A DNA stretch of 64,000 bases. Source: Eledone cirrhosa (taxonomy: Eukaryota). The notes beneath the pieces are model-generated. The model saw only the letters and a program-made list of their open reading frames with translations. It was not told the origin of the DNA and made no database searches. The position numbers and the translations under genes are program-made. Within the stretch, counting starts at the first letter, position 1. The number at the start of each line of letters is the position of its first letter. Location of the stretch: assembly GCA_964016885.1 (NCBI GenBank), contig OZ024742.1, positions 250,480,001-250,544,000 on the forward strand, in the 5' to 3' direction. This document shows positions 6,862 to 62,430 of the stretch, one piece after another.

Positions 6862-7066
6862 TTTATCCCGAGTACAATCGGGGGTAACCACAGTAAGAAA
6901 AGTACTCAATACATAGCAGAGTATAAATATTTAATATAGAAATGGCTTCTACAGGACTACAACTGTTTCATTCCGGAGAAATCATCAGGAAGCCCTGATA
7001 GGCTTCCTGGTGATTTCTCCCGAATGAAACAGTTCTAATACTATAGAAGCCATTTCTATATTAAAT
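6862..7066. mobile_element. Short hammerhead-bearing foldback element in (TA)n
   Basis: Arms 6926-6994 and 7001-7066 are inverted; unpaired tail 6862-6925; a relative lies at 21855-22024. Confidence 0.8.
6944..6994 (-). ncRNA. Type I hammerhead ribozyme
   Basis: Reverse complement reads ggcttc-CTGATGA-tttctccggaat-GAAA-cag ttgtagtc ctg-TA-gaagcc. The plus-strand mirror at 7001-7051 is mutated (CTGGTGA). Confidence 0.75.
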
Positions 7067-7074
7067 ATATATAT

Positions 7075-7722
7075 ATATGATTTTAATGCGATGAAATATC
7101 AATGATGGTTGGCAAATCACTGACGAGGGACTAATTTTATCATATGTAACCCATGTGCAACCACGCAGTATTCTTCTTTCTTCTCATGTTTTTTATACAT
7201 ATTTACCTCGGCTGCGTTTGTCTGTTTCTCTTTTACTGCTTCCCCGTTCTCTCTGTTTCTCTCACCTTCTTTCGCCCCCTCTGTCAGTTACACTTTCTCT
7301 CGACTGACCACTTCCTCGCACTTCCACTCACTCACTCTCTGTTTCTCCCCTTCTCACTTCCTCCCGTTTGGCTAGTAGTGGGGTCTTTTCTTGCTCACAT
7401 CTCACTCACGTCGGACGGTCTGTATCTAGATCGCTCATGAAATCCACCCAGCTTATGCTGCCCGGATAACCATGTTGCTTGTTTATTTTCCTATCTTCGG
7501 TTTGCTTTTATCCTTCTATGTTGTTTACTTGTCTCACTCGCTTTACGCGATTTACTTGTTCCAATAGCTTTTTTTAGTTATTGCTCGCAACAACCTGAGG
7601 TATATGATTTTTAATGCGATGAAATATTAATGATGGTTGGCAAATCACTGACGAGGGACTAATTTTATCATATGTAACCCATGTGCAACCACGCAGTATT
7701 CTTCTTTCTTCTCATGTTTTTA
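7075..7722 (+). mobile_element. Non-coding element with ~120-bp terminal direct repeats (partial tandem), in (TA)n
   Basis: 7075-7197 is almost identical to 7601-7722; each repeat contains CTGACGA-ggg...ccc but no GAAA. Confidence 0.7.
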
Positions 7723-7979
7723 TATATATATATATATATATATATATATATATATATATATATATATATATATATAAATGAATGTTTTTGCTTTCATGAA
7801 AAGCTTGAAAAGCTGCTACAATTCATATGAACTTAAAATAATCTAATAGGTGGGTGGCTTAAAATTGAAGGGGGAGATGTCGGTAGAGACGCTTATCCGA
7901 TAAATACGACAATTGTATAGTCATTAATGAAAGCAAATACATTTTATAAACCTGCCAAATTTCTGCGTAAACCTATCGA

Positions 7980-9081
7980 TATATATATATGTGTGTGTGT
8001 GTCTCTCTCTCTCTCTCTCTCTCTCTCTCTCTCTCTCTCTCTCTCTCTCTCTCTCTCTCTCTCTCTCCCTCTCTCTCTCTTTCCCTCTCTCCCTCTCTCT
8101 CTCTCTCTCTCTCTCTCTCTCTGCGTACATAATGCAGTGTCAGAAAACACAAACAAGAAGTAAACAGCAAGAAATTCAACATTATCAATGACAATAACAA
8201 GAAACTCTACAGTGAAAATATATAGCAAGCGAGTGACCAGTTTTAAAGATACGTCGTTTAAAATGTCTAATATTACCCAACTCAATAAAACCGTGACTAA
8301 CAAAATGCTGCTGACTTAATTCAAACAAAATCTATGGAAATGAAGAAGGCAATTTATTCGAGAACACTAAGAATTGAGTTAAAGGTCATATTAATGTAAA
8401 TAGATATCGGTTACTCAAGATCGTAATGGATACAGAGCGTGTTCAAATGGAGATAGAATAATTTCAAGTGTAAGACAACAAAATGTTATCTAAAACGGTC
8501 TCAGTTAGGCCAAAGGGTTAAATGCCAGATTGATTTAAATTACGTCAAAAATAAAAATACATTAAAGAAAATAGTTATCGCTTTGTATGTTTATACACAC
8601 ACACACTCTCTCTCTCTCTCTCTCTCTCTCTCTCTCTCTCTCTCTCTCTCTCTCTCTCTCTCTCTCTGTCTCTCTATCTCTCTCTCTATCTATCTATCTA
8701 TTTCTATCTCCCCCCCCTCTCTCTCTCTCACACACACACATACATACGTATATATACATGCCAATATCTACACATTTCCCTCCCTTGCTCCCGCTCTCTC
8801 TCTCTCGCGCTCGCTCTCTCTCTTTCTTTCTCTCTCTCTCTCACTCTCTCTTTCTCTGTTTCTATACACACACGCACACACACATATATATATGTGTGTG
8901 TGTATGTATGTATATAAGAATATGCATGTATATATATATGTATATGCTTGAATGTATGAGTATATATGTGTGTATATATATATACATACAGATGCATATA
9001 TATATATATATATATATATATACATATATGTGTGTGTGTGTGTGTGTGTGTGTGTGTGTGTGTGTGTGTGTGTGTGTGTGT
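7980..9081. repeat. Compound (TC)n/(TA)n/(TG)n microsatellite clusters (7980-8122, 8593-9081)
   Basis: Direct reading; these tracts explain the RERE/SLSL/HTHT ORFs. Confidence 0.95.
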
Positions 9082-9173
9082 TTCCAACATGTCGCAGATA
9101 TCTTCTCTCTTACTGAATGTTATCAACAAGAAACGGAACATCCCAGGTTAGATTGGCCGACATACATACAAAT

Positions 9174-59474: not shown

Positions 59475-59509
59475 TATATATATATATATATATATATATA
59501 TATATATAT

Positions 59510-61221
59510 AGAAGCTCAAATGCATACCAGATACAAACAAAAACAACAGACCTAACAACAATAACACTACCCACACCTATAGAAATAGCAAATGTAGGCC
59601 TAAACTTAGAAATAGACAATGAGCACCAGAAATAAATGAACCGAATACTAATATAAGGACCCCTAGGAACTATAAAAAATCCAGAGATAGGAAATACTTA
59701 TAGCTCAATCCAATATTCAACTCCTCTATAAAAACCAAATTACCTTCTACAGTCTTTAAACTAATTGACAAGCACTTCCCTAAACTTCACAAATACCATA
59801 AAATCTTTAATAGAAATACTATCAAACTATCTTACTCTACTGCAGCCAACATAGAATCACACATACATAAAATTAACTATAGAAGAATCTCTAATGAACA
59901 AACACCTACATACAAACACCATAACACCAAATACAAAACACAAACACATAACGACATCGCAACCACACACACACGTCAGAACACATCACAACAAAACATC
60001 AACAAACCCAAATCTCAGTCCATACATAACAACATACAAAACCGCATCGAAGAACCGGCACACAGGAAGGCCTCAAAATGTAATTGTCACTTACCGGATA
60101 AGTGCCCACTCCAAAATAGATGCCTGGAGTCAAATATAGTGTACCTGTGTACTATAAATTCAGGCAACTTAGCATGGCACTACATAGGTTCTACGGCTGG
60201 GGAGTTAAAAAAAAGATGGTACGTCCACAGACATTGTATAAAGAACCGTAGAATAATGAACACAACAACGCTGGCCAATAAAATCTGGCAGCTTACAGAT
60301 ATACAAACCAAGAATACGGGATTAACTGGTCGAAACTGTCAGGGGCAAAGGCCTACAAATTGGAATGTCCCACTGCGGACTTTGCAATATGGAGTTGCTC
60401 CATATTTTAAAGTACGACAAAATGCTACTTAACAGCAAAATAGAACGGTCAATTTTCTGTAGGCATAAAACAGCTACTAAATTCGCTAATTTTAAACCAA
60501 CATGATTCGATCCAACAATCCCATTATTCAAACTGAGAGTCTATTATAATAACCCATTATTATTTACTGTCAATAGATCAACTAATCACTGAATCAACAA
60601 CATCACCTCCTAACCTTTCTTTCTTCCACTCTCTTTCCCTAAAATTATTTCACCTCTTCCATTATATCCTATTATGTTCTCTTCAACTCTCATAAAACTT
60701 CCAATTTATTAATTTATCCTTTATTTAGCACTTTACTATTTCTTCATAATATAATTTAACCAATACATGTGTGTGTGTTTGATGTTTTCATGTTTAAACC
60801 ATCTCATCTTTATACTTTGACCACCACCACCGTCACAACTGTTTTCGACAATCATATTATGTTCACTTTTTTTCACACACATATATATTTTTTTACTTAT
60901 TTTTTATCATCTTTATTCTACCTTATTTATTATTATTTATTTATTATTTTTTATGGTTTTATTTTTTATTTTCTCTCTTTCTCTCTCGCTCTTTTTCTTT
61001 TTCTTTTTTCTTCTTTGTTTTTCCTAGTATATTACAAACGCCGTGTATAATTTTAACCAGTTATTCCGATGATTTGATTAAGCATACATTGTATTTAAAA
61101 TTGAGTGACACAACTTCAAGTGATTAGCAATTTTTAGACACCCTAATCAACGAAACAATTGTTAATACTGTAAATAAAACCCTTTTTATACTGTTGACCA
61201 TGTTATTCTTCACTCTTTCCC
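59510..61221 (+). mobile_element. Penelope-like element 3' part: linker, GIY-YIG endonuclease relic, 3'UTR/pLTR with hammerhead, ending in (TA)n
   Basis: KLIDKHFPKLHKYHKIFNRNTIKLSYS, CPLQNRCLESNIVY..YIGST..LKKRWYVH..TTLANKIW, CGLCNME..LLNSK..CRH. Confidence 0.88.
61058..61170 (+). ncRNA. Hammerhead ribozyme in the PLE 3' region (U4C mutation, long stem II)
   Basis: cagttatt-CCGATGA-tttgatta..taatcaac-GAAA-caattg-TT-aatactg. Confidence 0.7.
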
Positions 61222-61453
61222 TATATATATACATATATATATATATATATATATATACACACACATATATATATACACATATACACACACATATATATAT
61301 ATATATATATATATATATATATATATATATATATATATATATATATATATATATATATATATATATATATATGTATGTATATATATATATAATTATTTAC
61401 TATATTTAAACAGTGGCGCCTGTTCTTCTGGAATTTTACTTGTGTACTCGCAG

Positions 61454-61504
61454 TTTTGTCTGATGATACTGCGAATGTGCTGGTGAAACTCCAGAGTAAC
61501 AGGG
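61454..61504 (+). ncRNA. Type I hammerhead ribozyme
   Basis: ttttgt-CTGATGA-tactgc gaatgt gctggt-GAAA-ctc ca gag-TA-acaggg; TATTGAGTACTT follows at ~61550. Confidence 0.72.
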
Positions 61505-62077
61505 CACACTGCATAGTCATAATGAATGAATATTTAAATTTGATTTAGGTATTGAGTACTTTCTCAGGTCCGTCAATAATACATGTGTGTGTGTGTGTGT
61601 GTTTGTTTGTATATAAATAGATGCATATGCACACACACACACACATATGTGTGTGAATGTGTGTGTACATATGTGTGTGTGTGGTTTGTGTGTGTGTGTG
61701 ATGTGTGTGTGTGTATGTGATGTGTGTGATGTGTGTGTGTGTGTATGTGATGTGTGTGTTTGTGTGTGTGTGTATGTGAGTTACCTTAGGTGTATCTCCT
61801 GATTTGCAAGATAAGTTTTATTGCTGTTTTTGAGATTCCTCTCCCAATTACACCATGATATCATGTTATATAACCGGTGATGTTCATGACTAGCATCAAA
61901 TCTGATTCTCTGTTACATGATGAGCAACCACTTACATATACACTCGCATATATACACCCCTTAATTTGCATATATATATACATATATATATATTTATATA
62001 TACATATATATAAATATATATTCAGCTTGCTTATATATATATATATATATATATATATATATATATATATATATATA

Positions 62078-62430
62078 TTAGAAAGTGAGGTTTTTTTACA
62101 AAATGAAAAATAACCGAGGTGTCCTACACGAGTATAAAGAAGTATAAAGAAAAAAAGATGAAATCGAAAATGCAACTGGAGTCTTATTTTTTTTTAAATA
62201 TATATATTTATTGGTTCCTTTACCGGTGCGCAGTTCTTCTGCTTTTAAAAAGTAGAGTTGTGATGGAGGGTCTGTGGTTTTTCTCAGAAGAAAACTACAG
62301 ACCCTCCATCTCAACTCTACTTTTGAAAAGCAGAAGAACTGCGAAACCGGTAAAGGAACTAAATAAATATATATATATTTTTTTAAATAAGACTCCAGTT
62401 GCATTTTCGATTTCATCCTTTTTTCTTTAT
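62078..62430. mobile_element. Foldback family B element (~140-bp arms, ~65-nt tail)
   Basis: 62143-62284 is the reverse complement of 62289-62430; (TA)n on both sides. Confidence 0.88.
62320..62355 (+). ncRNA. Candidate hammerhead with a U3-A8 core variant
   Basis: ctt-TTGAAAA-gcag aagaa ctgc-GAAA-ccgg-TA-aag; stem I is short. Confidence 0.55.

Follow-up and report, generated by a model that had tools for sequence, protein, structure and literature searches.

Head-to-head foldbacks of an animal genome window are mostly truncated 3' ends of Penelope-like elements and probably arise from two cDNAs joined at TA repeats

The foldback insertions of a 64,000-nt stretch of the Eledone cirrhosa genome (C3:250480001-250544000 of a 3.0-Gb animal assembly; hereafter the window) were found to be mostly truncated 3' ends of Penelope-like elements (PLEs) in TA repeats, and PLE identity was established for five of the seven foldback families. 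Each family had two fixed 3' ends, a tailed and a tail-less one, with one of each kind per insertion, and the head-to-head junctions between the two arms were variable but clustered. This pattern is likely to reflect two cDNAs that are primed from nicks in opposite target strands and then end-joined head to head. Foldbacks were located by masked self-BLAST of the window, which has a GC content of 37% and abundant microsatellites throughout. Families are named after the window copy at 3606 (F1), 6862 (F2), 19922 (F3), 24187 (F4) or 43703 (F5), plus A and B; a separate PLE at 59510-61222, P, lies outside the seven. All of the foldbacks that an earlier sequence-only reading had listed for seven families were recovered where it had placed them.

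The 3' ends were bimodal in every family in a position-picked sample of 1.264 Mb, which comprised the window and 120 stretches of 10 kb. Family A gave 76 hits, of which 24 ended at position 65 and 30 at position 144. The distance between the two ends, i.e., the tail, was 52-86 nt across families (A, about 79; B, about 61; F1, 52; F2, 59-72; F3, 86; F4, 84; and F5, 69 nt, the last from the window copy), which agrees with the earlier proposal that the inverted arm lacks its last 50-100 nt or so. The proposal that this arm stops at the same base within a family was borne out as well: in the window it stopped at TTCCTA in all six A copies and at TTTCTTTA in both B copies, and the end coordinates of copies from the 1.264-Mb sample gave two fixed 3' ends per family rather than random ones. 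Both element ends finished on TA-like bases, and the insertions were generally bounded by (TA)n, as had been described, except that the F1 tail-less end at 3606 enters (AGAT)n.

In three other raw Illumina runs labelled as the same species, 2,596-2,907 reads per run passed from the internal A end into (TA)n, and several opposite-strand joints were present. Together with arms that diverge by 1-8% (about 6% on average) and ends that are fixed per family, these reads make a foldback artefact of the long-read assembly a negligible prospect, even though no short-read record bridging a window junction plus both unique flanks was found. A drop in read depth was set aside as evidence; the pile-up end at L331:1511 in restriction-site-associated (RAD) runs falls on an AATT word and was probably produced by restriction digestion.

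Head-to-head pairs, defined as inverted arms no more than 700 nt apart, numbered 75 in the position-picked sample, and both ends could be classified in 66 of them, nine having an unclassifiable end. Sixty-two of the 66 combined a tailed with a tail-less end, four were tailed at both ends and none was tail-less at both, where 33 mixed pairs would be expected if the ends were independent (p=8e-15). One of the four both-tailed pairs was an internal piece of the 3606 copy. A flank sample, made up of the neighbours of targeted loci and counting other families only, held 35 pairs, three of them unclassifiable, and 29 of the remaining 32 were mixed. Among long insertions (20 fetched of 27 listed long pairs, picked by an internal motif), 19 were mixed and one was tailed at both ends. 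Insertions bounded by the same two ends were 0.17-4 kb long, and single arms spanned 80 nt to 2.7 kb. A miniature inverted-repeat transposable element (MITE) or another DNA transposon with terminal inverted repeats was rejected as an identity for these insertions; instead of symmetric repeats and uniform length, they have ends that differ by 52-86 nt, lengths of 0.17-4 kb and varying junctions.

The copies in the window were as follows.

3606-4557: F1 foldback; tail-less arm on the minus strand (3606 to about 3990, running into (AGAT)n), an extra internal piece, and tailed arm on the plus strand ending at 4557; tail about 52 nt; hammerhead core at 4253 (+) and 3866 (-); arm identity 357/377.
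6862-7066: F2 foldback; tailed arm 6862-6998 (-), tail-less arm 7001-7066 (+); tail about 59 nt; type I hammerhead; arm identity 60/66.
19922-20742: F3 foldback, the 3' end of a Hydra-type PLE; tailed arm 19922-20373 (-), tail-less arm 20375-20742 (+); tail 86 nt; hammerhead; arm identity 365/366.
20763-20992: A foldback; tail-less arm (-), tailed arm (+); templated duplication at the junction, which lies in hammerhead stem II.
21852-22024: second F2 foldback, found by self-BLAST and absent from the earlier list.
23950-24146: A foldback; tailed arm (-), tail-less arm (+).
24187-24527: F4 foldback; tail-less arm (-), tailed arm (+); tail about 84-85 nt; hammerhead; a Hydra-type open reading frame (ORF) occurs in the related copy L057; arm identity 104/106.
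28978-29120: A insertion; an arm consisting of the tail only (-) is followed, almost without overlap, by an inverted tail-less arm (+).
31413-31589: A foldback; the 5' reach of the tail-less arm exceeds that of the tailed arm by about 23 nt.
36119-36291: A foldback.
37012-37295: B foldback; tailed arm (-), tail-less arm (+); extra sequence at the junction.
43704-43941: F5 foldback (the copy at 43703); tail-less arm (-), tailed arm (+); tail about 69 nt; member of an element of about 0.5 kb in partial tandems; arm identity 77/78.
59288-59475: A foldback; zero-spacer junction inside hammerhead stem II; arm identity 54/55.
59510-61222: P element (+), a 5'-truncated PLE with a broken GIY-YIG-type ORF remnant at 59704-60432; it stops at its own internal (tail-less) site in (TA)n and has no inverted arm.
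62079-62431: B foldback; tailed arm (-), tail-less arm (+); tail about 61-64 nt; hammerhead with a U3-A8 core; GIY-YIG ORF upstream in the B loci L131 and L140; arm identity 126/139.

An inverted copy in each listed foldback had been claimed, and this held generally, the A insertion at 28978-29120 with its nearly non-overlapping arms being the exception. A second F1 copy in the window (30347-30849) is a direct partial tandem that is tailed and has no inverted arm.

The tail-less arm was usually the longer one when the arms differed. Reach was called equal when the arms agreed within 8 nt, and the 62 short mixed pairs comprised 24 in which the tail-less arm extended further 5', 10 in which the tailed arm did and 28 that were equal; the reach of F4 in this comparison was capped by short reference sequences. 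The 19 long mixed pairs gave 12 with a longer tail-less arm, three with a longer tailed arm, three equal and one complex. Over short and long pairs together, the tail-less arm was longer in 36 of the 49 unequal pairs (p=0.001), by as much as about 2.4 kb (2,668 vs. 197 nt in L349); the arms of L057 measured about 3 kb and 1.3 kb. The earlier equation of the long arm with the tailed arm is thus not general, as the tail-less arm was longer in 12 of 15 unequal long insertions. In 13 of the 62 short pairs the tailed arm started no more than 35 nt from the internal site, or beyond it.

These lengths bear on self-priming, in which a single cDNA would fold back, copy itself and halt close to the tail, where joining or nicking would take place at a fixed site; a related proposal appears in the open text of PMC3846280. 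Self-priming would give one end of each kind, 28 of the 62 pairs are near-perfect palindromes, and the turns in A sit in a native hairpin, as some other turns sit on short native palindromes. In 24 short and 12 long pairs, however, the tail-less arm holds sequence that is absent from the tailed arm and therefore cannot be a copy of the tailed cDNA. The whole native loop was kept in none of the first 50 A junctions, and tail-less ends also occurred without a nearby partner. As a general mechanism, self-priming is contradicted by these data; it stays viable only where the arms are equal, and it is unlikely overall. The sequence-only reading had allowed either a second initiation site or a joining site; initiation fits better than joining, because 37 tail-less ends stood alone, the nearest 700 nt holding no partner, and because tail-less arms often extended further 5' than tailed ones.

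Turn points varied, as had been reported, yet they were clustered rather than free, and in A the cluster lay within hammerhead stem II. The first 50 A junctions, counted by eye, fell into 34 types, the commonest of which accounted for six. In one A subfamily, both arms terminated within the 3' strand of stem II at 11,139 loci or more, compared with 4,162 arms that read through; stalling of the reverse transcriptase (RT) or a cut RNA may underlie this cluster. The hammerhead cleavage site was considered as the main opening point and rejected, since only about six of 99 tailed A arms, judged by eye, started within 10 nt of it. Nine of the 20 long junctions had overlaps of 1-14 nt and the others had short gaps, one with a local repeat. 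At L248:1250-1600 an F1 arm is fused directly to a tail-less A arm in a chimeric junction, and the A junctions in L244, L250, and L253 are filled by inverted copies of flanking DNA.

Independent origin of each foldback at integration, as had been inferred, was supported by the junction types, by subfamily bases carried on both arms and by the occurrence of the same two ends on arms as short as 80 nt and as long as 2.7 kb. Across 22 A foldbacks the arm-to-arm identity was 94.3% (1036/1099) and the mean copy-to-copy identity 87.2%, with 53 minority bases on both arms and 63 on a single arm; the base-sharing test is weak alone because gene conversion could yield shared bases too. An alternative is that pre-formed foldback masters, MITE-like or non-autonomous, were amplified as units and had their hairpin centres deleted later. 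The commonest junction (6/50) and the junction shared by about 23 of 30 query-selected loci would suit such masters, and the best other copy was often closer (98.7%, a maximum over many copies) than the partner arm. Masters are nevertheless very improbable given that 50 junctions comprised 34 types, that the same two ends bound 0.17-4 kb insertions containing ORF pieces, that several A subfamilies each have their own bases on both arms (the 53 shared minority alleles), and that a perfected hairpin occurred in none of the first 100 read-through A copies.

The two arms of an insertion also tended to stop together. On C1, 27 pairs in which both arms read through accounted for 54 of the first 100 read-through arms; both arms read through in 27 of the 73 insertions having a read-through arm, where independent stops would give, as a rough expectation, about 9%. 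The element is likely to nick both strands of (TA)n and to prime one cDNA from each nick, one starting at the tail end and the other at the internal site 52-86 nt upstream. Both cDNAs would be RNA-templated, probably on the same RNA with the internal one leading, and the tail-less arm would hence be equal or longer. Near-perfect palindromes would result where, as would often happen, one RNA structure (stem II in A) or a common RNA 5' end halts both cDNAs, and host end joining would add the microhomology overlaps and short inserts. The pairing rule, the length bias and the coupling are explained most simply if both cDNAs are made on one RNA and the internal one leads, an arrangement that we hold tentatively, at somewhat less than an even chance. 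The specific form in which two RT active sites sit on one RNA at two set positions, opposite nicks prime and the internal cDNA leads is of similar, or slightly lower, standing.

A variant within the same explanation places two separate RNAs in a dimeric particle, with protein geometry setting one start site per strand. It accounts for the one-of-each rule and for the cases with a longer tailed arm, and stem III of the hammerhead is palindromic in B, F1, F3, and F4; palindromic stem III fits dimeric hammerheads. Alone, the two-RNA arrangement leaves the coupled 5' reach, the tail-less length bias (36/49, p=0.001) and the tailed arms that start near the internal site (13/62) unaccounted for, and we regard it as the main alternative and the less likely arrangement.

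Several observations weigh against the joining of two opposite-strand cDNAs or restrict it. The 10 short and three long pairs with a longer tailed arm are not predicted by a strict leader-trailer model. Both-tailed pairs occurred (4/66 and 1/20), and F5 is an exception, about four of nine inverted partners being tailed. When loci were fetched with a query that contained one junction, about 23 of 30 had this same junction; the recurrence is a query effect, because the first 50 A junctions do not include it. Junctions could be reshaped by later deletions at the centres of palindromes, and, apart from the roughness of the 9% expectation, coupled arms would also result from mixed source RNAs. No ORF link was found for two families, as detailed below. 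The open text of PMC11167929 finds no strand difference in the start site and gives tails of 30-40 nt. The mechanism proposed here is read from genomic sequence and published in vitro work.

The PLE identity of A, B, F1, F3, and F4 follows from longer copies that extend into a same-strand GIY-YIG-type ORF upstream, which confirms the suspected PLE link for five of the seven families. Upstream sense ORFs were found in three of 10 A loci (L317, L319, and L324), in two B loci (Pfam GIY-YIG, 8.4e-08), for F3 in L195 and other loci, and in one locus each for F1 (L042, 457-586 nt away) and F4 (L057). Only B passed the Pfam GIY-YIG cut-off, F3 scoring 0.02. The A and F4 ORFs had no Pfam hit, and their assignment rests on 39% mutual identity and on Atlas clusters with RVT_1/GIY-YIG; the F4-related ORF encodes 517 aa, and its nearest Atlas clusters contain RVT_1 and GIY-YIG members. 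No ORF link was seen for F2 (30 loci) or F5 (8 loci) within 1.5 kb upstream, and these families may be non-autonomous or may have longer untranslated regions. F5 is a short unit in partial tandems (L353-L360), with at least eight copies within 32 kb on C11 (4478017-4509930), and is possibly a non-autonomous element mobilized by a PLE. PLE-type ORFs are very abundant, since the protein remnant at 59704-60432 gave 62,210 first-look candidates genome-wide.

A CxCX5C linker was present and a CCHH motif absent in A, F3, F4, and P, and DKT and RW(R/T) motifs occurred in related RT pieces (L075 and L194). A decayed PLE RT fragment in the window (57705-58500, minus strand) is related to the ORF in L075. 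The marks of the Hydra clade are a C-terminal GIY-YIG without CCHH, a CxCX5C linker, RW(K/R/T), DKT, hammerheads, and (TA)n insertion (PMC8557442, open text). A, F3, F4, and P carry such marks and are provisionally placed in this clade, by motifs only. B does not match the set; its endonuclease is of a different type with two cysteines in the core, and a linker upstream of it was not seen (L352 has no ORF of at least 120 aa).

Minimal type I hammerhead topology was detected with our own descriptor in six families (A, B, F1, F2, F3, and F4), each at a score reached by none of 300 shuffles, and these motifs are predicted ribozymes. The descriptor found none in F5 or P. Rfam listed no hammerhead among the best 150 of 215 window matches, nor in two focused scans. 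The core in A and B is of the U3-A8 form, a natural and active variant. A canonical CTGANGA core upstream of A was rejected as the native one, all 15 hits being junction or flank sequence.

The window holds other repeats. A symmetric inverted pair at 19438-19811 (176/183 identical) faces across a long (TA)n centre, a layout unlike that of the head-to-head foldbacks and similar to that at 27027-27348. An element at 36449-37006 has terminal inverted repeats of about 90 nt (86/90) and TA flanks, and we take it to resemble a Tc1/mariner remnant. A perfect 86-nt palindrome (33073-33158) lies at an inversion point inside the RT fragment of a long interspersed nuclear element (LINE), with a weak Pfam RVT_1 hit nearby. 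A LINE-type element at 13007-17361 has hits to endonuclease, RVT_1, and zf-RVT, and a related partial copy lies at 1-3424 on the minus strand. About 12 copies of one 180-nt repeat core resembling a short interspersed nuclear element occur at 17898-18394, 19321-19420, 25585-25768, 33668-35990, and 50933-55051.

The foldback architecture is largely known already; the counts are new and the structure is not. The insertion unit of endonuclease-bearing (EN+) PLEs is described as an inverted 5'-truncated copy with a junction palindrome and a tail at one end (PMC8557442 and PMC3846280, open text), and the open part of PMC8969392 describes the same three features; PMC12910113 contributed nothing further. 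Novelty is further lowered because two RT start sites bounding the tail have been shown in vitro with a PLE protein that cleaves both target strands, extends them and is predicted to dimerize (PMC11167929, open text). Relative to the open literature, the new points are that the tails are longer, that the rule of one end of each kind has been counted, that the tail-less arm tends to be the longer one and that the two arms are coupled; subscription papers and supplements may hold such counts. The open PLE literature still calls the formation of inverted copies and one-sided tails undefined. If the form with two RT active sites on one RNA is true, fixed-site tandem twin priming replaces self-priming as the source of PLE palindromes, and the one-tail rule is, together with the longer tail-less arm and the coupled hairpin stops, a fossil record of the whole integration step. 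The counts predict for the in vitro PLE system one start site per strand, a tail-less arm at least as long as the tailed arm, and stops at stem II. The short perfect hairpins of one subfamily, at least 11,139, could be mistaken for MITEs or microRNA precursors, and Rfam gave sub-threshold microRNA matches on A-type hairpins.

In L1 twin priming, opposite target strands supply two primers, which leads to a 5' inversion joined by microhomology. The A copy at 28978 and the 13 of 62 pairs with tailed arms starting near the internal site approach its non-overlapping form; unlike in L1, the second site here has a set position and the same sequence is usually present in both cDNAs. Compared with Anolis Poseidon in vitro (PMC11167929), two start sites bound the tail, both strands are cut and extended and the target is AT-rich in either case. 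The open text of that study does not pair the two sites within one insertion or explain inverted arms, and it states that primer and start site lack homology, whereas both ends here finish on TA-like bases. The canonical EN+ PLE unit, as openly described, shares with ours the head-to-head inverted 5'-truncated copy, a usually one-sided tail, a 3' hammerhead and a microsatellite target; our tails are 52-86 nt rather than 30-40 nt, and most of our copies are minimal (170-450 nt). The Hydra clade, as far as its open description goes, shares GIY-YIG without CCHH, CxCX5C, RW(K/R/T), DKT, CxxC and CxH near the end, hammerheads, and (TA)n, and differs in that the B endonuclease is distinct and copy numbers here are very high.

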